From a virus, in the IMG/VR virus record IMGVR_UViG_3300020185_000016: DNA of 64,000 nt; one strand, given 5' to 3'. Position 1 is the stretch's first letter, and the number at the start of each line of letters is the position of its first letter. Of the stretch, positions 37,482 through 60,175 are shown in pieces. The translations under genes and the position numbers were made by a program. The notes beneath the pieces were generated by a model. The model did not search any database and was not told where the DNA came from. It was given only the letters and a program-made list of their open reading frames with translations.

Positions 37482-37964
37482 TTATATTAATCCCTTTGAA
37501 TCCATAACTAAATATCCTATACCGCCAAATACTCCGATACAAGCAAACATTAATATTAATATAGCTAAAGTATTTAATAAATTTTTACGCATTTCGGCCT
37601 GGCGATATACAGTTTCTTGCCTTTGTTTTGCTATCTTACGACGCATGCGAATTAATTCATCCCAGGCATTTGCTCCATATCTAAACATTAGCATTGTTCT
37701 TAATTCTTTTTCTTGTTCAATTATTTTCTTTTCTTGAATAAGCAATGCTAAAGCTTCTTCTTCAATAGATCCGCTAGCAAATAGCCGTTTAAAAATTGGC
37801 GGATTTTTTGCTTGTTCTTTTGCAAATCTAAAATCATTTACTGCGCTATACCACTTACCTAATTGCTGAGCAGTATCTTCAAATTCCCTACCAGCCGCAA
37901 CCATTCGAGTTACTACATTATATGCAGAGGTAGCCATAGTTATTGCTGATATTGGATCTATCAT
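37482..37964 (-). CDS. Coiled-coil protein with C-terminal TM
   Basis: MIDPISA start; TM at C-terminus. Confidence 0.7.
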   Translation of the reverse strand: MIDPISAITMATSAYNVVTRMVAAGREFEDTAQQLGKWYSAVNDFRFAKEQAKNPPIFKRLFASGSIEEEALALLIQEKKIIEQEKELRTMLMFRYGANAWDELIRMRRKIAKQRQETVYRQAEMRKNLLNTLAILILMFACIGVFGGIGYLVMDSKGLI

Positions 37965-38215
37965 TATTCGGTTTCTTTTTTATCTAAAACTGCATACATG
38001 TCTTTAGCTTTTTCATGAAACCCGCTTAATTTATTTTGCATCCATTCCGGAAATTTTTTATTATTTTGAATATGTTCAGCTACTTCTTTGCCTACATATT
38101 GAATAAATTCTGCTTGTTGCATAGCCATACCGGCTTCATCTGGGGAAGCCGGTTTATCATCTTCTGGCGCTTCTGTAATAATGCGGAATTCTCTTAATTG
38201 GGTAAAGGATTTCAT
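37964..38215 (-). CDS. Putative internal head protein (CTS)
   Basis: MKSFTQLRE..IITE/A; PEWMQNKL. Confidence 0.7.
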   Translation of the reverse strand: MKSFTQLREFRIITEAPEDDKPASPDEAGMAMQQAEFIQYVGKEVAEHIQNNKKFPEWMQNKLSGFHEKAKDMYAVLDKKETE

Positions 38216-38216
38216 T

Positions 38217-41075
38217 TTATTTTACCTTACTCATTGCAAAATCCATCATTTTCATAAACCTGGTTTCGTCTTTGTTAATTGCGTCAGCAAACTTTTTCTT
38301 GTTTGCATCGTTCAACGAGTCATGCACCTTTACCATTGCAGATGCAGTGAACATATCAACTTTTGTCTTTGAACCAGAAGCAAATTTAACAGCTCCGGCC
38401 GACTTTGTGTTTACGATTTTACGAAGATCATCGATAACGCCTTCTGATACAACTTCTACATAATCTTTATTACTAGGTAATTTGCCTTTATTAAGACCAT
38501 TTTTAGCTTTATGTTTATCAAATGTGGGTTTAATACCACGCTTTTTAGCATTCTTTTCAGCTTTATCGATATCAACCATATGCTTAGCATAACCCTTCTT
38601 AAACATTTTAGGGTCAGATTTTTTATGTTCATCGTCATTTTTTGATTGCTTTTTATTACGCCAATCAATAAATTTTTTGCCGGACATTGCTGCGGCCCGA
38701 TCACTGGAGGTATATTTACCGCCAAATAGACCTTTATTATCTTTGTATTTAGCACTGGTACCAGCAGCCTCTTCTAGCGGATTAGTAAAGCTATCGGCCT
38801 TTAAGCGGCCAATAATACGTCCACCCCCATCTGTAACAATAAAATCGCCGTTATCAGCAATACGAGAAGTTGTTCCGGCTTTTGCTCTTTTACCACCAAG
38901 AGCCTTTGTCATTAGGGCCTTTACTGCTCTTTCTTTTACGCCTTCATCAAGTTCAATTTCTTCATTACGTATATTTTTCTGAAATGCTTTGTATTCTTTG
39001 CGGCGGTCTGCGTCTTTATCTAATAAAGAAAGAATTTTTTCACGTGGCTCTGTGTCTAAGTCATCGACAAACTTCTTCAGTTGTGCTGTTTGACCTTTCT
39101 TCATCATCATAGCAGCTTTTATAAAGTCCATCTTATCAATGCCGCCATGTTTACGGGCATAATCTTCAAGTTCTTTTGCAACACGTGACATTGTAGCTTC
39201 ATCAAGATTCGATTCTCTTATTGAGGCTTTGTACAATTCTAAACCTTTAGAATATGCTGGGTTTTTCATCATTCGCTTTGACTCAGCATCATCTGGATTT
39301 TGATGAGCCATGCGAACTGTTGGTTCGTCTAATTTATTGGCTTTCATATGCTTTTTATATGCATCAAACTTTTTAGAATCTACTGCTGGACCAAATCTGT
39401 TTCTCATCGGCGTGGTTGTTTCATTAACAGATTCAGCAAGCTTCCAACCCTTTGCAAGATATTCTTTTTGTTTAGTCTTATCAATAACAATAGTTTTGCC
39501 GGCTTTATCTACAACCATGACTTCGGTTTTAGGATTTTTTAACTGCCGAGCCTCCTCAACAGATTCGGTAAATTCAACTGGAACAAGGATGGATCCTTTA
39601 GACCCACCATTAACCATCATCATTTCATCACCTTTACGAGCAATTTTAAAATCTTTGTGAATTTTTTTAAAGTTAGCTTTTGAAATATAAACTTTATTAT
39701 TTTTTACTTCATAATCGCGATCCCGTAAAACGGCTTCGTCAAGCGATTCAAATTGCATAGTATGTTGGCCACTGCCACGAACCTTTTCGGCTGCGGCTTT
39801 AGATGAATATGGGGCACCTTGATTAACAAATTTGCCACCAGAAAACTTTTGAACCTGAAACCCGGATTTTGCTTTAGCGCCGGCTCTGTTATCAGGGTGG
39901 GCATTCGACAAATCTATAATACGGATTTGACCGGTTTTAGCTTCAGAAATAGCCTCATCGCCCTTATCGGTTTCGCTGTTTATATTTTGTTTAAATTTAT
40001 TCCAATTATAATCGCGGATAATTTTTAAGATTGCATCTCTATTACTAGAACGCTTGTCAATATATTTACCAACAATGACATCAATAGACATTTTGGCTTC
40101 AAGATCTTTAATAATCTTTTTAGCTGGTAATTTAGCTTCATCTACATATTCAATACCTTCTTTCATATCGATAAGACTTGCACCTAAATCGCCAATAGCA
40201 AAGGTAATTTTACCGTCCTTTTTTCTACGTAAGAAAGATTTAACACCACCAGATTTTGCTTGAAGAGTAATTTTTTCTTGTTCGGAAGGCTTACCTTTTA
40301 AAACGGTTGTTTTTGATAAAACTTTATATTCGACAAAATCTCCACCTTTAGATAACGTTGAATCAAATTTAATTTTTACATTATCATTTTTCTTTAACTT
40401 ATCGAAAATAGCAGAATGTTTGTCGGTCATTTCAGTTAATCCTTTAATTTGTGTAATTTCTGTGGTAGCTTCTGCCATTGCAGGCTTTTCAATCATATAC
40501 ATTTGTACAGATTCCGTTGGAACAATTCCACCACTTTTCCATACTTTTGGGGCAATAAGAACTCGCGGTCCTCTTAATTCTTTTACAATATAATCCATTT
40601 TAGCTTCGGCTGGTCCGTCAGCGTATTTCTTTTTTAAACGAACAGTATCACCTTTTTTAATTTCGGTTTTTGCTTCATAAGCTGGGCCACGCTTTGGTGA
40701 TCCTGGATTTGGCTGTTTTAAATTTTTACGAAGTGCTGCAAGATCATTTTTAAGCTTGCTTATCTTAAAAGATTTCATAACATTTGAATTGCCAGATTTT
40801 GTTATAGCATTTTTTGTTAATTGCATAGACTCTTCGGTATTTTCTTTACGTGACATAGATTTATCCATTTTATCGGCCGCGGAATTGAATAGTTTAGTAT
40901 AAGTTTTTTCATTTTCGGCGGCCGAAGGCATTGCCATCATAACATCATCATTAACAAGATCCCAATTAATTGAACCATCTTTATTATAATTAGCCTTATC
41001 TTTTAAAGACTTTTTTATGTGTTTTTCAATATTAGATTTATTAAGAGAAGCCTCTTGCAAATTACGATTTTCCAT
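38217..41075 (-). CDS. 952-aa Lys-rich modular polyprotein, putative prohead-protease substrate
   Basis: GAGG RBS before MENRNLQE/A; repeated hydrophobic-x-E/(A,G,S,T) linkers. Confidence 0.85.
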   Translation of the reverse strand: MENRNLQEASLNKSNIEKHIKKSLKDKANYNKDGSINWDLVNDDVMMAMPSAAENEKTYTKLFNSAADKMDKSMSRKENTEESMQLTKNAITKSGNSNVMKSFKISKLKNDLAALRKNLKQPNPGSPKRGPAYEAKTEIKKGDTVRLKKKYADGPAEAKMDYIVKELRGPRVLIAPKVWKSGGIVPTESVQMYMIEKPAMAEATTEITQIKGLTEMTDKHSAIFDKLKKNDNVKIKFDSTLSKGGDFVEYKVLSKTTVLKGKPSEQEKITLQAKSGGVKSFLRRKKDGKITFAIGDLGASLIDMKEGIEYVDEAKLPAKKIIKDLEAKMSIDVIVGKYIDKRSSNRDAILKIIRDYNWNKFKQNINSETDKGDEAISEAKTGQIRIIDLSNAHPDNRAGAKAKSGFQVQKFSGGKFVNQGAPYSSKAAAEKVRGSGQHTMQFESLDEAVLRDRDYEVKNNKVYISKANFKKIHKDFKIARKGDEMMMVNGGSKGSILVPVEFTESVEEARQLKNPKTEVMVVDKAGKTIVIDKTKQKEYLAKGWKLAESVNETTTPMRNRFGPAVDSKKFDAYKKHMKANKLDEPTVRMAHQNPDDAESKRMMKNPAYSKGLELYKASIRESNLDEATMSRVAKELEDYARKHGGIDKMDFIKAAMMMKKGQTAQLKKFVDDLDTEPREKILSLLDKDADRRKEYKAFQKNIRNEEIELDEGVKERAVKALMTKALGGKRAKAGTTSRIADNGDFIVTDGGGRIIGRLKADSFTNPLEEAAGTSAKYKDNKGLFGGKYTSSDRAAAMSGKKFIDWRNKKQSKNDDEHKKSDPKMFKKGYAKHMVDIDKAEKNAKKRGIKPTFDKHKAKNGLNKGKLPSNKDYVEVVSEGVIDDLRKIVNTKSAGAVKFASGSKTKVDMFTASAMVKVHDSLNDANKKKFADAINKDETRFMKMMDFAMSKVK

Positions 41076-41553
41076 TGTAACCTCTACCGATTGATTTACG
41101 GAATTGTTTAACACCAACTCTATCAGACATGTCTTGGCCCTTTTCACGCTTACGAATAGTTTCTTTTTCTTTTGAAATTTCAGGATTGCCGCGAAGAAGT
41201 TTAGCTGTTGCAGTATTACGAGCCTTATCACTTTTCATTTTAGCTTTTTTTCTATAGCTATCCAATGCGCCTGGACGATCTAGAACTTCATCAATAGTCT
41301 CTTCATTCTTGCCTCTTACTTTATCCGCTAAATCTTTATCGGCTTTGCCCCATGTGCCCGGAGATTTTGTAGTAAACGAATTAACCCTAGCAAATCCCCA
41401 TTGTTCAGGAGTGGTTCCAGGTCTATGACCGGTTTTCCAAGCCGCTACACCGCGGTTATATACACTACGTAAAACACTTAATGGCATTCCAGATTTTTCC
41501 GCTTTATTTTTAAGTGCTTTAGTATTTTCATTAAATTGTTTAAAAGTTTTCAT
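41062..41553 (-). CDS. Putative internal head protein, two modules
   Basis: MKTFKQFNE/N; internal EETIDE/V. Confidence 0.8.
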   Translation of the reverse strand: MKTFKQFNENTKALKNKAEKSGMPLSVLRSVYNRGVAAWKTGHRPGTTPEQWGFARVNSFTTKSPGTWGKADKDLADKVRGKNEETIDEVLDRPGALDSYRKKAKMKSDKARNTATAKLLRGNPEISKEKETIRKREKGQDMSDRVGVKQFRKSIGRGYNGKS

Positions 41554-42752
41554 GGCTTTGTCGATCTATTTGTTGAACGTGTTTGTAAAGTTCGCGCGCG
41601 ATCTCGCATTGCATCAAATTTGATTTTATCTGCTCTTTTTTCTCTATTAATTCTATCATTTACTTTATCAATATAATCAATTTCTTCGTCGGTATCGCCA
41701 AACATTTGTGCAAATCGTTTAGTGTGCTTACTTGGCTTAGTTTTTGCAGTGGCATCGCCTGGTGCTTTTTTATAAGCATCGGGATTATTATCAGCCTTTT
41801 TAGCATTCTTTTTAAAATGTTGGTCTCTAGCAATTTTTGTAGACTTGTTCTTTATTCCAGCAAAATACTTTTTAGGCTGCGCTCCATCACGGTCCGCAAT
41901 ATCGGGATCTTGGGTAGTAGTTGTTTTTTCTTCAATTTTTTCAATTCTATCAAGCCATTGTCTAGATTTTCCGGATGAAGTTTCAACAATTACATAATTT
42001 GGGCCAAGTGTTGCAATAATACCAACCTCGCTTGTTTCAGTAATAATAATTTCTTCGCCTATAGAATACAAATCACCCTTTACATATTGCTCTCTAATAT
42101 CAGAAATAGATTCTAATTGAATGTGACGTTTAAATTCGGTTTCTTCTTTTAATCCCATGCCTTTACGCACATCATTAAAAAGTTTTTTTGCATCAGAATT
42201 ACTCATTGAAGTAGGAAGACCTTCATAAAATTTTGTGAAATTATTCTCTGCGGCAAATTTACGCTGCTTAGTTCCAGACGCACCGTCTGGCCCATCGCTA
42301 TCAGCATCTCGCATACCGGCCGATATTACCTGAACCCCACCATTAAAATTATAAAATCCGTGAGTAGAATCAACTCCATTATATTTATTTAATCTAATTT
42401 TATATTCATCCACTCTATCACTACCAGCTACCATAATAACTTTACGGAAACCCTGATCATAAAGATAAGCTAATGCAAAAAAAGGATTAATAATTTTTTT
42501 ATTAATTAAAATATTGCGGGCATGTTTTGGAAACATTTTTCGCACATGCTTTACCTTGTCCGCATATTTCAAAGGATTATCTTTTTTATCCTGAGATTGA
42601 GATAAAAAGATTTTATACGGCAAACGGCCAGCGGTTTGCGCTAGTTTATTTAATAATTTACCATGACCAACAGTAGGCGGATTTAATCTACCAAAAGTAA
42701 AATATACTATTTGGTCTTCTTCAATAATATATTGTTTAAAAGAATTAACCAT
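41550..42752 (-). CDS. HIGH-family nucleotidyltransferase with CTS and C-terminal modules
   Basis: MVNSFKQYIIEE; FGRLNPPTVGH, GSDR, SGTK.R. Confidence 0.85.
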   Translation of the reverse strand: MVNSFKQYIIEEDQIVYFTFGRLNPPTVGHGKLLNKLAQTAGRLPYKIFLSQSQDKKDNPLKYADKVKHVRKMFPKHARNILINKKIINPFFALAYLYDQGFRKVIMVAGSDRVDEYKIRLNKYNGVDSTHGFYNFNGGVQVISAGMRDADSDGPDGASGTKQRKFAAENNFTKFYEGLPTSMSNSDAKKLFNDVRKGMGLKEETEFKRHIQLESISDIREQYVKGDLYSIGEEIIITETSEVGIIATLGPNYVIVETSSGKSRQWLDRIEKIEEKTTTTQDPDIADRDGAQPKKYFAGIKNKSTKIARDQHFKKNAKKADNNPDAYKKAPGDATAKTKPSKHTKRFAQMFGDTDEEIDYIDKVNDRINREKRADKIKFDAMRDRARTLQTRSTNRSTKP

Positions 42753-43191
42753 TTTTAGATTGTGCCTTATGCTGTTTTCTATCTTTTTCAGCTTGACGCA
42801 TTTTTGGAAGCAATTTTACAGCAATGCGATCTATTCTTGAGCCCATTTTCTCAAGCCGTTTTTCTAATTCCATTTTACGAGCAACTGACATATCACTTTT
42901 CGGAATATCTTTTGTAAGTTTTTTAAGAATAATATTACGGGCTGCTTTACGTGCACGTTTTTTTAACACATCTTTATTGGCAGTACGACGTGCGGCGCGG
43001 TTGCGCCCCATTTTTAATTTAGCTTTATTACGTTTCATACTACGGCCGCGAGCTAATCGCTGTTGAATATTGAGAGCCTCATCTGGGCCACCACTACCGC
43101 CGGTTCTTTTTGTTCTATGTGCTTGATGTTGAACTTCGTCTGGTTCTCCATCACGCATATCTACAACTCTTAGATCTTTAAATCTAATCAT
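42745..43191 (-). CDS. Arg/Lys-rich late protein
   Basis: MIRFKDL; PDE/ALNIQQRLARGR. Confidence 0.8.
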   Translation of the reverse strand: MIRFKDLRVVDMRDGEPDEVQHQAHRTKRTGGSGGPDEALNIQQRLARGRSMKRNKAKLKMGRNRAARRTANKDVLKKRARKAARNIILKKLTKDIPKSDMSVARKMELEKRLEKMGSRIDRIAVKLLPKMRQAEKDRKQHKAQSKNG

Positions 43192-44420
43192 TAACTTCTC
43201 CCTGGCTTATCCCATCCTTTAATAATATCTGGCGAAAAGTTGTTGTATGAAAATTCTAATCTATCAACAATCTTTACAGCGTCACTACCCAGTCTATCAA
43301 TTGCTACATAACCTTCTTGACCCGTTGTTTTAAAACCATTTTTAGTTTTTACAAAAGTCTTTACTTTATTTATCCTATCAAGTATATTTATAAGTTTTAA
43401 TTTCGCTAAGACAATAACTTTCTGCAATTCGAACATAGTTATCAAATTATTTTTATTATTAGCCGAAAAAAATGATAAAATATCATTCAGTTTATCTTGT
43501 TTGCGCCCCTTACCTTTTTCAGTTTTAAGCTTATCCATTTCTTTTTGGAATTTTGCTTCAATAAATTTAATAAGTGCCGTTACTCTTTTGGCTGGATCCG
43601 GGGGCATTTGGCCTGCCCGTACATAAGAATTTGAATGTTGCTCTATTAATTGTGTTAAATCAGTATTAGCTTCTAAGGTGCGTAAAACGCCCCCCGAAAT
43701 TTTATTAAATAATTTTCCAGCTTGAGTTAAATAGTCATTTACTATATCGGAATCAGACTTATTCATAGTAAGATTTGTCATATCACGAAGCATAGCATCT
43801 TGCGACCAAACATTTTTTGATTTTTTAAGACGAGAAACATTAACACCATATGAAGCTTTCATAGTTTCAAATGTATTACCTTTATATGTAGTATGCCAAA
43901 CAATACCAATTTTAGATGCTAAAATTTCTTTTGATGATACTGTATTAGCTGGTACAGCATAAACAATAGTATTTGGATGGAAGGTGATATATTTTTCACC
44001 AGCAATAGTTTCATTACTAAGATCGCCTGGGCCGTATAAAAAATCGCCCTGAATAACTTCAGTAATTCCCAATTCGGGTAAATATTGTAAGGCTTGCTTA
44101 AGCTTTATAGCTAAATCGCCTGAAGTATCTGCATCTACCTCACCTGGAGTTTTATATACTTTTGGATTTTTATTAAAAATACCCTTTTTAGCAACAAAAA
44201 ATTTGCCATCAGCTGGATCAATGCCAGCAAATACTGCTGGTGCTCCATCCCATTTAACAGATATTTTCCCGTCATGTTCGCCCTTTAACATATTACGCAA
44301 TTCGCGCAAAGCCATAATAGCTTGACGAGTACCATTAACACCACCATAAATCACCTTATCTTCAAGGTGTGTCATGTGAGTATTTTTGTTTTCAGCAATG
44401 AAAGATTTAAAGTTTTCCAT
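43191..44420 (-). CDS. CTS-bearing protein with ligase-like nucleotidyltransferase motifs
   Basis: MENFKSFIAE/N; VKWDG, IQGDF, QEGYV, VKIV. Confidence 0.7.
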   Translation of the reverse strand: MENFKSFIAENKNTHMTHLEDKVIYGGVNGTRQAIMALRELRNMLKGEHDGKISVKWDGAPAVFAGIDPADGKFFVAKKGIFNKNPKVYKTPGEVDADTSGDLAIKLKQALQYLPELGITEVIQGDFLYGPGDLSNETIAGEKYITFHPNTIVYAVPANTVSSKEILASKIGIVWHTTYKGNTFETMKASYGVNVSRLKKSKNVWSQDAMLRDMTNLTMNKSDSDIVNDYLTQAGKLFNKISGGVLRTLEANTDLTQLIEQHSNSYVRAGQMPPDPAKRVTALIKFIEAKFQKEMDKLKTEKGKGRKQDKLNDILSFFSANNKNNLITMFELQKVIVLAKLKLINILDRINKVKTFVKTKNGFKTTGQEGYVAIDRLGSDAVKIVDRLEFSYNNFSPDIIKGWDKPGRS

Positions 44421-45255: not shown

Positions 45256-46008
45256 TTACATTTTTACCCTAGGTTTAATTGTGCCAGAAGTTATTCTTTC
45301 TAAGATAATATCTTTCTTTTGAACCAGTTTAATTTCAATAAGGTCCCCAAGAGAAAATCCGGCGCCAGTTTTATTAGCTAAAAAAATAATTTTATGATTT
45401 TTAAAATAATTTTTATAACTTAGATCTACAAATTCATCTTCAAGGTCTTTAAGCTGCGCCGGAAATTGTTTTCTTATTATATCAAGTTGTCCGCTATTAA
45501 CTTCGGATCCACTTCCTAATCCAGCATCTTTTTTTAAATCTTGAATCCCGCGAATAATTTCAGCAATAGAAAATGTTCCCCCAATTTTAAAATTATTAAC
45601 ATATTTACCATTAGCCGAATAATCAACAGCTTTAACTTCAAAGCTTCCTGCTGCATCCACAATATCAACTCCGGCCGAAGAGCCTCCACCCAAATGTCCA
45701 TTATTCAAAATAAAATATAGCATAACTTCACCGGGTCCTACCCCTTTAATATTATACTTATATAATGCTTCGAAGTTACGGATATCTATATTCCGTGCAG
45801 TTTTAATTGCTTTTTTAAGAGCTGACGCAGTAATTCGATCTATATGAACATCATTGCTATTATTAAATTTTGGAAAAAAATGTAAATGAAAAAGATGTTG
45901 AATTTCTTTTTTATAAGTCAAAGATTCAAAATCTTTTGCAATTAAATTAAATGAGGTCCGTACCATAGCTCTATTAAGAAACTCGGAATTTAATTGACTA
46001 GTATCCAT
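45256..46008 (-). CDS. Putative PD-(D/E)xK nuclease-like protein
   Basis: GPGE..; GVDIV....FEVKA; TATAAATA at 46040..46047. Confidence 0.55.
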   Translation of the reverse strand: MDTSQLNSEFLNRAMVRTSFNLIAKDFESLTYKKEIQHLFHLHFFPKFNNSNDVHIDRITASALKKAIKTARNIDIRNFEALYKYNIKGVGPGEVMLYFILNNGHLGGGSSAGVDIVDAAGSFEVKAVDYSANGKYVNNFKIGGTFSIAEIIRGIQDLKKDAGLGSGSEVNSGQLDIIRKQFPAQLKDLEDEFVDLSYKNYFKNHKIIFLANKTGAGFSLGDLIEIKLVQKKDIILERITSGTIKPRVKM

Positions 46009-46061
46009 TATTTTTTTCCACTAATAAACTTATTAGTATTATTTATATAAAAAAATATTAT

Positions 46062-47461: not shown

Positions 47462-47668
47462 TTATGCGAAGTGGTTATCAACAAGCACACTAATGCAATC
47501 ATTCAGATACTCAGTATCATAGAAGACTCCAAGTGGAATAAAGATATCAGACTCAACAAAGTTCCAATTGATACCGCCACCTTCGTGGATATTTTCTGGA
47601 TTAACCACCGCAGCATTGAAAGCTTCGATAATGTCATTCTTAATCATTGCGCCATAAGTAGTAAGCAT
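47462..47668 (-). CDS. Early protein of the INW family (paralog of 59885..60175)
   Basis: IKND..EAFN.A....EN......INW.FVE.D shared. Confidence 0.75.
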   Translation of the reverse strand: MLTTYGAMIKNDIIEAFNAAVVNPENIHEGGGINWNFVESDIFIPLGVFYDTEYLNDCISVLVDNHFA

Positions 47669-48189: not shown

Positions 48190-48447
48190 TTATGCCACCT
48201 CATAGCCTATTACAGTTTCTACATATCCATTACCATACTCTTCAGCAATCGCCAATAGGATCTGCTCACGTGGTTCTGTATCCATATTACCGATTTTTGC
48301 TAAAGCGCCGTCAATGTCATTCGAATTCATCAGCCACTGCACCTGCTTAAAATCAGCCGTATCGGCCAGATATAGATCAGCAAGGCCTGCATCTTGTGCT
48401 TCTAAGCTATAGCTGAATGTTTGATCGATAAGTTTTTGAATAGTCAT
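48190..48447 (-). CDS. Early protein with DTEPRE motif
   Basis: GGAG RBS; matches a polyprotein module. Confidence 0.75.
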   Translation of the reverse strand: MTIQKLIDQTFSYSLEAQDAGLADLYLADTADFKQVQWLMNSNDIDGALAKIGNMDTEPREQILLAIAEEYGNGYVETVIGYEVA

Positions 48448-51868: not shown

Positions 51869-52636
51869 ATGTATACTTTTAAATCATTTATAAGCGAAAG
51901 CGCTAAATCAGATAAGTATGAAAATGATATGGCTAAACACATTGCCGATATGGGTTTAGACGCATCTCGTCCAGCCGTTGATCCAACATATTCAGATATT
52001 CTTATTAAATATAAAGGCGATCGCATATGGTTAGAAGTTAAAATGAATCACTCTGACCAACTTGGCAATACTCGCGCTAGTTTTGACGGTAAAAAATGGA
52101 TTGCCGCAATTGATAAAAAAGGCCCTAGTAAGGGTAAATTATCTCCTCTTAAAGCATATATTACTAAAACCTTAAATAACGATAAAGATACTCAAGCATG
52201 GTTAAAAGATCTTGAAAAGTTTTCCGGAATAAAGGGTATGAAAGTACCCACATTAATTTCTGGATTGAGTGATCCAAAATCCGTTCCACGTGATGTAATG
52301 ATTGCATATTTAAAAGGTAAAAAACAATATATTTTAAATAAACCTGAAGTAGATTTGGGCGAGTTAATTACTCAGCATTATCTTAAAGGGAAATCCGAGC
52401 CAGCATATTATATGCAAGCCGGCGATGATTTCTATAGAATTGGTTCTGCAAATCCAATGGGCGTTCCTAATGATGTTCCATTACTCTCTGGCACTGGCCC
52501 ATTCAAAATGCGCATTGGTATGCGGTCAAAGTATTATGAGGTGCAGCCCGAGGTTAAAATTACTAAAATGCCGAGCAGTAAGTATTCCTTAAAGCCCGGC
52601 ACTAGTAAATTAAACCCATTTGAAAATATCAAATAA
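51869..52636 (+). CDS. CTS-bearing PD-(D/E)xK nuclease-like protein
   Basis: MYTFKSFISE/S; E..(N-terminal), SDIL......WLEVK. Confidence 0.65.
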   Translation: MYTFKSFISESAKSDKYENDMAKHIADMGLDASRPAVDPTYSDILIKYKGDRIWLEVKMNHSDQLGNTRASFDGKKWIAAIDKKGPSKGKLSPLKAYITKTLNNDKDTQAWLKDLEKFSGIKGMKVPTLISGLSDPKSVPRDVMIAYLKGKKQYILNKPEVDLGELITQHYLKGKSEPAYYMQAGDDFYRIGSANPMGVPNDVPLLSGTGPFKMRIGMRSKYYEVQPEVKITKMPSSKYSLKPGTSKLNPFENIK

Positions 52637-59884: not shown

Positions 59885-60175
59885 TTATACTCCCAAATAA
59901 TCGGTTTTTAGAATTTCGAGTTGCCCAATAGCGTTTGGATAACGAGTGAGTAAATTTTCAGTATTGTCTAGCAAGTCGTCACGTAAAACATCTAAGCAGT
60001 CTATGATATATGATCGGGTATATACAAAACATTCATTGTACATATCAGCTTCAACAAAAGCCCAATTGATTTTGTTATTATAATCAAAATTCTCGCGAAG
60101 AAAAATCGCGGTATTAAAAGCTTCGACTACATCATTTTTGATGGCCGAACCATTTGCTAGATGATAGATTGTCAT
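59885..60175 (-). CDS. Early protein of the INW family
   Basis: Paralog of 47462..47668. Confidence 0.75.
   Translation of the reverse strand: MTIYHLANGSAIKNDVVEAFNTAIFLRENFDYNNKINWAFVEADMYNECFVYTRSYIIDCLDVLRDDLLDNTENLLTRYPNAIGQLEILKTDYLGV

Follow-up and report, generated by a model that had tools for sequence, protein, structure and literature searches.

A 952-residue modular protein of a T4-like phage relative as a candidate polyprotein of internal head proteins

An open reading frame (ORF) in a virus whose closest cultured relatives are T4-like marine phages encodes a protein of 952 amino acids (aa) that reads as a row of small blocks, and it raises the question of whether such a chain is made to be cut, and by what. 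The ORF occupies positions 38217-41075 (stop codon included) on the minus strand of a 64,000-nucleotide (nt) stretch, IMG/VR record IMGVR_UViG_3300020185_000016, referred to here as the window. The initial annotation had described Lys-rich blocks divided by short acidic linkers that end in Glu, and translation, motif counts and module borders confirm this. On balance, and with a little more confidence than doubt, we regard the product, P0001, as a polyprotein of internal head proteins that is processed by the prohead protease.

38217..41075 (minus strand): 952-aa modular ORF, product P0001 (identical to P0002), with GAGG 5 nt before the ATG

The window is AT-rich (~34% G+C), carries nearly all of its genes on the minus strand, and includes genes for a DnaB-like helicase, both ribonucleotide reductase subunits, an exonuclease and an endolysin. 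The closest cultured relatives are Melnitz (Kyanoviridae) and C48C1, and the nearest record compared (G001) is a 22.8-kb fragment without head genes. P0001 starts with MENRNLQEA behind a GAGG Shine-Dalgarno sequence; its identical counterpart, P0002, comes from other assemblies (4 contigs, 36 member sequences). The whole protein has an isoelectric point (pI) of 9.7 and a Lys content of 16%. Nothing useful was matched when P0001 was compared with Pfam, PHROGs and PDB sequences, phage records yielded no blastn hit to the gene, and tblastn of the protein against phage records matched only a 160-aa piece, found in Melnitz and C48C1.

Glu-ending linkers and the modules of P0001

The pattern [LIVM]-x-E-[AG] occurs 11 times in P0001 where 1.95 occurrences are expected, and the narrower [LIVM][DE]E[AG] six times where 0.27 are expected; none of 5000 shuffled sequences reached either count. 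The motif frequency, proposed in the initial annotation as a check, is therefore clearly above that of shuffled sequence. Neither the reversed motif nor an Asp variant was enriched in P0001 under the same shuffle control, and none of the ~115 other ORFs of the window showed an excess (38 observed against 31.7 expected when pooled). The linkers vary in sequence, and the pattern that is kept consists of a hydrophobic residue at P3, Glu at P1 and a small residue at P1'; the DNA of the gene holds no repeats longer than 15-19 nt. Because these three positions alone are kept and the DNA repeats are so short, the constraint seems to lie on the peptide and not on a recombination sequence, which points to selection acting on the linker peptide. 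The linkers obey the [L/I/V]-x-E rule of T4-type prohead proteases, with the exception of the site at residue 82 (TEE/S, the slash marking the predicted cut), which breaks the hydrophobic-P3 rule. The proposed match to the rule of T4 gp21 thus held up, both in the fit itself and in that the linkers have the same form as the predicted gp23 sites of relatives described below.

Whether these sites mark module borders was judged by three tests that are independent of the motif: the ends of homology, insertions and deletions, and predicted structure. For the first of these, an exhaustive HMMER search was made with P0001, its hits were clustered at 50% identity, and 537 internal envelope ends from 187 relatives were compared with 5000 random site sets. 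The ends cluster at residues 215, 313, 378, 447, 508, 552, 626, 711, 769 and 878, and 59% of them fall no more than 8 aa from a proposed site where 24% are expected, a figure that no random set equalled and that is not a strict probability because the relatives are kin. The second test is provided by P0003, which is 98% identical to P0001 and differs from it by two events only, both of them the gain or loss of a whole module: a 76-aa module is gained after the ISE/A site (residue 378), between ..AIS/EA and ..VID/EA, and the 85-aa 'DTEPRE' module is lost between ..SN/LDE and ..IE/LDE.

For the third test, AlphaFold models were made of residues 203-452 and 497-782 (mean predicted local distance difference test, pLDDT, 77.5 and 76.4; predicted template modelling score, pTM, 0.44 and 0.35, respectively). 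Both regions are predicted to form compact modules (pLDDT 85-96) separated by confidence troughs (below 50-65) at 303-317, 369-374, 433-452, 497-509, 549-558, 617-626, 705-709 and 772-782, and in these models the trough positions are the linkers (313, 378, 447, 508, 552, 626, 711 and 769). An ESM Atlas model of the entire chain has a pTM of 0.19. One fold running across the linkers, which had been named as an observation that would speak against cutting, is thus not seen in the models. Foldseek of both AlphaFold models against the PDB returned nothing below E 0.07 and the ESM Atlas matches were viral hypothetical proteins only; since the modules are without a known fold, the earlier label of 'effector' is a guess.

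Taken together, these tests support the Glu-ending linkers as true module borders. Of the 14 sites that had been listed, the ten named above have independent borders and two more (134 and 202) have some support; for the site at residue 8 the evidence is the fit to the motif, and the one at 82 is weak. P0001 is accordingly best described as a string of ~12-13 independent, mostly basic modules, which agrees with the ~13 small basic pieces of the initial annotation. The proposed pieces have pI values of 9.0-10.6, apart from two modules that are neutral and two very small peptides that are acidic, so that 11 of the 13 modules are small basic proteins in the sense of T4-type internal head proteins. 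From the N-terminus, the pieces are as follows.

41052..41075 (minus): leader MENRNLQE, aa 1-8, ending LQE/A, the tripeptide of the predicted gp23 site in the relative G002
40830..41051 (minus): module 1, neutral, aa 9-82, weak C-terminal border TEE/S; few homologues
40674..40829 (minus): module 2, pI 10.6, aa 83-134, ending AYE/A; 84% identical block in P0048
40470..40673 (minus): module 3, aa 135-202, ending MAE/A; stand-alone in P0154, also in P0091
40431..40469 (minus): 13-residue spacer, aa 203-215, from MAE/A to LTE/M; low pLDDT (model residues 1-11)
40137..40430 (minus): beta-rich module, aa 216-313, ending VDE/A; pLDDT 90-96, 23 homologous targets
39942..40136 (minus): helical module, aa 314-378, ending ISE/A; trough 369-374, followed by the insertion of P0003
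39735..39941 (minus): alpha/beta module, aa 379-447, ending LDE/A; pLDDT 83-93 (linker 53-65), 21 targets
39552..39734 (minus): module, aa 448-508, ending VEE/A; envelope ends at 505-510, pLDDT below 50 at 497-509
39420..39551 (minus): small hairpin-helix module, aa 509-552, ending VNE/T; pLDDT 62-88, troughs 497-509 and 549-558
39198..39419 (minus): helical module, aa 553-626, ending LDE/A; 57 targets, pLDDT 81-87 (62 at 617-626)
38943..39197 (minus): 'DTEPRE' helical module, aa 627-711, ending LDE/G; 88 targets, cleanly deleted in P0003
38769..38942 (minus): helix and three-strand module, aa 712-769, ending LEE/A; pLDDT 89-94, troughs 705-709 and 772-782
38442..38768 (minus): very basic module (net +15), aa 770-878, ending VSE/G; 40 targets, stand-alone in the 85-aa P0150
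38220..38441 (minus): C-terminal cap module, aa 879-952; C-terminal in 26 of 31 homologues

The same modules stand in many different orders in relatives, a comparison that the initial annotation had called for, and every module except the last is positionally free among homologues. The cap module (879-952) also occurs in 153-aa proteins (L028 type) that start MKSFKQFAAE, and we speculate that it may anchor or target chains whose N-terminus bears no leader. The counterpart of module 2 in P0048 follows ATEE/S, and homology between the two proteins ends near residue 217. Envelope ends around the beta-rich module gather at 307-318, and this module has a counterpart in Melnitz gene 20. The 'DTEPRE' module is the most frequent of the family. 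A link that had been drawn between module 1 and the genes at 47462-47668 and 59885-60175 was dropped, as BLASTP gave no alignment.

Two side observations concern possible duplicates. Modules 135-202 (40470-40673) and 216-313 (40137-40430) are both beta-rich and open with a KKGDTV(R/K)(L/I)K-like sequence, and MAFFT mixes up the homologues of the two; these modules are perhaps distant duplicates of each other. Elsewhere in the window, the leaderless, free-standing 85-aa gene at 48190-48447 is a weak paralogue of module 627-711 (BLASTP E 4e-5 over 36 aa), with which it has the signature D..DF..(22 residues)..DTEPRE in common.

A family of mosaics and its link to the head genes

The HMMER relatives of P0001 comprise 1,241 clusters at E <= 0.001, 384 of them at E <= 1e-10. 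They are 85-1,143 aa long, each aligns with P0001 over a single stretch or a few, and they are mosaics of shared and other Lys-rich modules. Across 22 non-redundant members the junction logo reads K-E-E-V-E-L-D-E/A and the most frequent four-residue words are ELDE, EEVE, VELD and LDEA; family-wide, [LIVM][DE]E[AG] is found 334 times against 38 expected (control ORFs, 5 against 4.4). Some members hold enzymes in the same chain, among them a cytidylyltransferase-like domain (fused to P0001-type modules in P0020 and P0021), a Zeta_toxin/AAA_33 kinase and DUF5824, and the enzyme begins directly after a linker. Cys-rich metallothionein- or zinc-ribbon-like modules (weak matches to Pfam Metallothio_PEC, PF02068) stand between the same linkers in P0045, P0040, P0048, P0089 and P0094.

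The N-termini of many of these proteins recall T4. The T4 internal proteins carry a leader, MKTYQEFIAE, with a single cut after it (PMC8442874). Such a capsid-targeting sequence (CTS) has ~10 residues, with an aromatic residue at positions 4 and 7, Ile or Leu at 8 and Glu at 10 (PMC9026906, PMC8442874); residues 4 and 7 govern targeting and residues 8 and 10 processing (PMC9026906), and gp21, the T4 protease, cleaves after Glu (PMC5694885). A CTS-like leader is found at the N-terminus of 24-39 of 181 family members. Stand-alone single modules with a leader include P0154 (103 aa; MYSFKSYIEE/..VSE/G followed by module 3), P0117 (127 aa) and the 153-aa MKSFKQFAAE proteins.

A link to head maturation is seen in both gene order and cut sites. 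Two paralogues, P0005 (559 aa, start MKTFKNLIAE/V) and P0023 (661 aa, start MKKFSQIISE/V), are encoded directly between the portal and Peptidase_S77 genes, followed by scaffold and gp23, in two lineages. In the T4 gene order (public record AF158101) this is the slot of gp67 and gp68. P0005 and the 952-aa gene have 615 nt in common at 91% identity; tblastn of P0005 gave no match. We take the maturation site of T4 gp23 to be located at LTE/A. When gp23 of G002 (a 183-kb relative) and of Melnitz was aligned to T4 gp23 of AF158101, LQE/A in G002 and LSE/A in Melnitz stood opposite this site and are thus the predicted maturation sites; P0001, too, has LQE/A as its first site. The portal-protease slot of Melnitz (L045, 125256-125943) has three small ORFs (61, 82 and 82 aa) and no long mosaic gene, and the content of the slot therefore differs between lineages. 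A further record, L003 (IMGVR_UViG_3300009507_000644), is 97% identical to G002 until ~8617 and then 97.6% identical to window positions 39559-38194, joining a P0005-type 5' half to the 3' half of P0001. It is either a natural recombinant at the shared 615-nt block or an assembly chimera, and because of the latter possibility it was not used as evidence.

The copy in the window lies outside the portal(gp20)-protease(gp21) slot, in a cluster with DUF6267, cytidylyltransferase and DUF5824 genes. The features around it are listed here.

41062..41553 (minus): DUF5824 gene (Pfam PF19141), 163 aa, start MKTFKQFNEN; 14-nt overlap with the start of P0001 (41062-41075)
41550..42752 (minus): cytidylyltransferase-like gene (PHROG 3041/395), CTS-like start MVNSFKQYIIEE
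43191..44420 (minus): DUF6267 gene, start MENFKSFIAE; N-terminus resembles the T4 CTS (MKTYQEFIAE)
37964..38215 (minus): 83-aa gene just downstream, leader MKSFTQLREFRIITE/A and one module; BLAST-type match to P0035
35669..36642 (minus): three small genes with strict CTS-like starts MKPFKLFIAE, MKSFKTHLTE and MLKFKTYISE
46040..46047 (minus): T4 late-promoter-like box TATAAATA, 39 nt upstream of gene 45256-46008

Strict CTS-like N-termini were found in six of the 146 six-frame ORFs of the window, and five of the six (MENFKSFIAE, MVNSFKQYIIEE, MKSFKTHLTE, MLKFKTYISE and MKPFKLFIAE) flank the 952-aa gene. The sixth, MYTFKSFISE, belongs to one of the rare plus-strand genes (51869-52636), outside the cluster. 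The 83-aa gene shares 59% identity (E 2e-25) with a module inside the mosaic P0035, and the alignment begins exactly at ITE/A in the former and VNE/A in the latter; the cut site of a leader is therefore the same element as an internal linker. DUF5824 is fused to modules in relatives, and comparison with P0015 suggests that the DUF5824 gene and the 952-aa ORF were once a single chain, divided by a frameshift within a linker.

The cytidylyltransferase also connects the cluster to a published virion proteome. It matches PSSM4_155 of phage P-SSM4 (T4-GC190) at E 2e-46, and 25 peptides of T4-GC190 were found in purified virions of cyanophage S-SM1 (PMC3037559, text and Tables S2/S8). Gene position, targeting-like leaders and the virion proteome of this fused or neighbouring enzyme together support a tie between the family and the prohead. 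The same cluster and leaders recur in lineage L043, in Melnitz and in P-SSM4, and the family reaches cultured cyanophages. In P-SSM4, a cultured Prochlorococcus phage, the same arrangement is found at 152192-155116 (L046, PSSM4_155-158): the cytidylyltransferase starts MKKFSAFLKE/A, a 324-aa protein has ESVEVEE/G and EEVEQIDE linkers, and two small genes starting MLSFK follow. This arrangement is a ready experimental system.

The initial annotation had called P0001 a late protein. The TATAAATA box stands before gene 45256-46008, which heads a tightly packed gene row, and this is suggestive only; the box is not enriched across the window (14 observed against 17 expected), so that 'late' rests on the position of the box.

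Proposed processing and alternative explanations

In the mechanism that we propose, the precursor would consist of ~12-13 unrelated, mostly basic domains of 44-110 residues joined by acidic [L/I/V/M]-x-E linkers followed by Ala or Gly. It would be made late, alongside neighbours that bear T4-like capsid-targeting leaders, and incorporated into the prohead core, where a serine protease of the gp21 type (Peptidase_S77) would cut after the linker Glu, as it would do in the major capsid protein and in leader peptides. Once released, the basic modules would stay beside the DNA as internal head proteins and exit together with it when a cell is infected. The same linkers could also provide standard junctions through which genes acquire, lose and exchange whole modules. 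We infer the cleavage, packaging, retention and ejection of the modules from these features of the sequence and from the T4 precedent.

Several observations weigh against this mechanism. In the AlphaFold models a helix runs on through some of the linkers, and the conservation of the family linker EEVELDE exceeds what T4 gp21 is known to require; this linker may have some other role. The 952-aa gene sits in the post-helicase nucleotide-metabolism cluster, outside the head module, and head genes are absent from the 64-kb window, so that the cognate prohead protease gene is not among the genes seen; a Peptidase_S77 gene is present in the family-carrying relatives Melnitz, G002 and L041/L042. T4-GC71, the orthologue of the DUF6267 protein of the cluster, has no proteomic 'YES' in the S-SM1 table (PMC3037559). 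Finally, P0001 itself has only the L-x-E/A part of a CTS in MENRNLQE/A, with no aromatic residues at positions 4 and 7, and the targeting of this copy is uncertain because its own leader is non-canonical and it appears to be split from DUF5824 by a frameshift.

The non-canonical leader also suits an uncleaved multidomain protein of the 'polyvalent' type, working intact in the cytoplasm or packaged whole, with the linkers as flexible spacers and recombination joints. Cutting of P0001 is, after all, a prediction from sequence, and known polyvalent proteins of phages, the N4 virion RNA polymerase among them, go into the particle without being processed (PMC5512222); the gains and losses of modules lie at short repeats within linkers, and two of the few DNA repeats of the gene sit on linkers. 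However, a spacer needs no fixed hydrophobic P3, Glu P1 and small P1' amid an otherwise varying linker, the same E/A junction ends the N-terminal leaders of stand-alone modules, and paralogues adjoin the prohead protease gene, and we consider this explanation unlikely. Less probable still is a cleaved protein of the prohead core, whose pieces help to build the core and are then expelled like those of T4 gp22, gp67 and gp68. The paralogues do occupy the gp67/gp68 slot, T4 core proteins are cut to short fragments that leave the capsid (PMC5694885), and the start of T4 gp67, MEGLIE/A, resembles MENRNLQE/A in form. Yet the pieces of P0001 are basic (pI 9-10.6) like the retained internal proteins of T4 (PMC8442874), which favours their being kept in the capsid rather than expelled, whereas gp67 has a long acidic tail; the modules are predicted with confidence to be folded, are individually conserved in hundreds of clusters and are freely shuffled, and the enzymes in the same chain in relatives fit cargo better than scaffold. 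Most doubtful to us is processing or use outside the capsid, in which another host or phage protease or a binding partner would recognise the linkers and the modules would act during intracellular development. The surroundings of the gene in replication and nucleotide metabolism and the leaderless weak paralogue of the 'DTEPRE' module at 48190-48447 would fit such a role, but no other protease is evident near the gene by Pfam and PHROG, the motif is that of T4-type prohead proteases and of the predicted gp23 site, CTS-like leaders are present in the cluster, and the orthologue of one of its members is a virion protein.

If the linkers are cut in the prohead as we propose, P0001 would represent a polyprotein strategy in a tailed double-stranded DNA phage, in which one gene and one existing protease yield a changeable set of packaged proteins. 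A broader idea, which we offer tentatively and think rather more likely to fail than to hold, is that marine T4-like phages have a cassette system: standard linkers with protease sites would let dozens of unrelated small proteins and enzymes be strung together, shuffled and swapped between a gene of the head module and a second locus, so that one gene loads a dozen different proteins into the capsid for delivery to the next host. Cutting in the prohead would also account for the way in which abundant ocean phages (kin of pelagiphages, methylophages and cyanophages) vary the content that they inject, and would give a simple sequence rule for spotting virion cargo in metagenomes. It would also define a large unannotated protein family, that of the 1,241 clusters above. 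Such cutting can be tested for directly, because the same cluster is present in the cultured phages Melnitz, P-SSM4 and S-SM1, and mass-spectrometry data sets of virions already exist.

Comparison with known systems

Literature searches turned up no account of such proteins among T4-like marine phages. P0001 is set here beside four known cases. In the giant phages phiKZ, 201phi2-1 and SPN3US, a gp21-related protease recognises a three-residue motif and cleaves after its Glu in a large number of head proteins, some of them at more than one site, as in inner-body and ejection proteins. There, the motif is A/S/G-x-E, the additional sites serve mostly to shorten the long propeptides of individual proteins, and a chain of unrelated modules between cut sites is not described. 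T4 gp67, gp68 and gp22 are multi-site substrates of the prohead protease, cut at several L/I-x-E sites, and the paralogues share the portal-protease slot of gp67 and gp68. Their fragments are short, largely acidic and expelled, whereas the pieces of P0001 are basic, diverse and predicted to be folded, and its gene lies at another locus.

The internal T4 proteins IPI, IPII and IPIII and Alt resemble the proposed products in several ways: they are small basic proteins with a hydrophobic-x-Glu cut rule and a highly diverse, fast-changing content, and their M-K-x-F/Y-x-x-F/L-[I/L]-x-E leaders recur here both in neighbouring genes and within the family. The T4 proteins are packaged and ejected with the DNA, and the same is presumed here. 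The differences are that P0001 shows no sequence similarity to these proteins and has a leader that is not a canonical CTS, and that T4 makes each from its own gene with one cut, whereas here a dozen units would come from one ORF with internal cut-site linkers.

The polyvalent proteins (Iyer et al. 2017, PMC5512222) offer a conceptual parallel, with many unrelated domains per chain; the ~13 modules of P0001, each with a separate set of homologues and free in order, are of this kind. Delivery with the DNA and release of domains by proteolysis have been predicted for them, with an explicit analogy to viral polyproteins (PMC5512222). They carry an embedded peptidase (MPTase) and a known effector repertoire, neither of which is seen in P0001 by Pfam or PHROG, and the recognisable parts of its relatives are limited to cytidylyltransferase-like, Zeta_toxin/AAA_33, DUF5824 and metallothionein-like domains. 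Unlike the polyvalent proteins, P0001 would depend on the capsid maturation protease and on a standard linker for the release of its modules.

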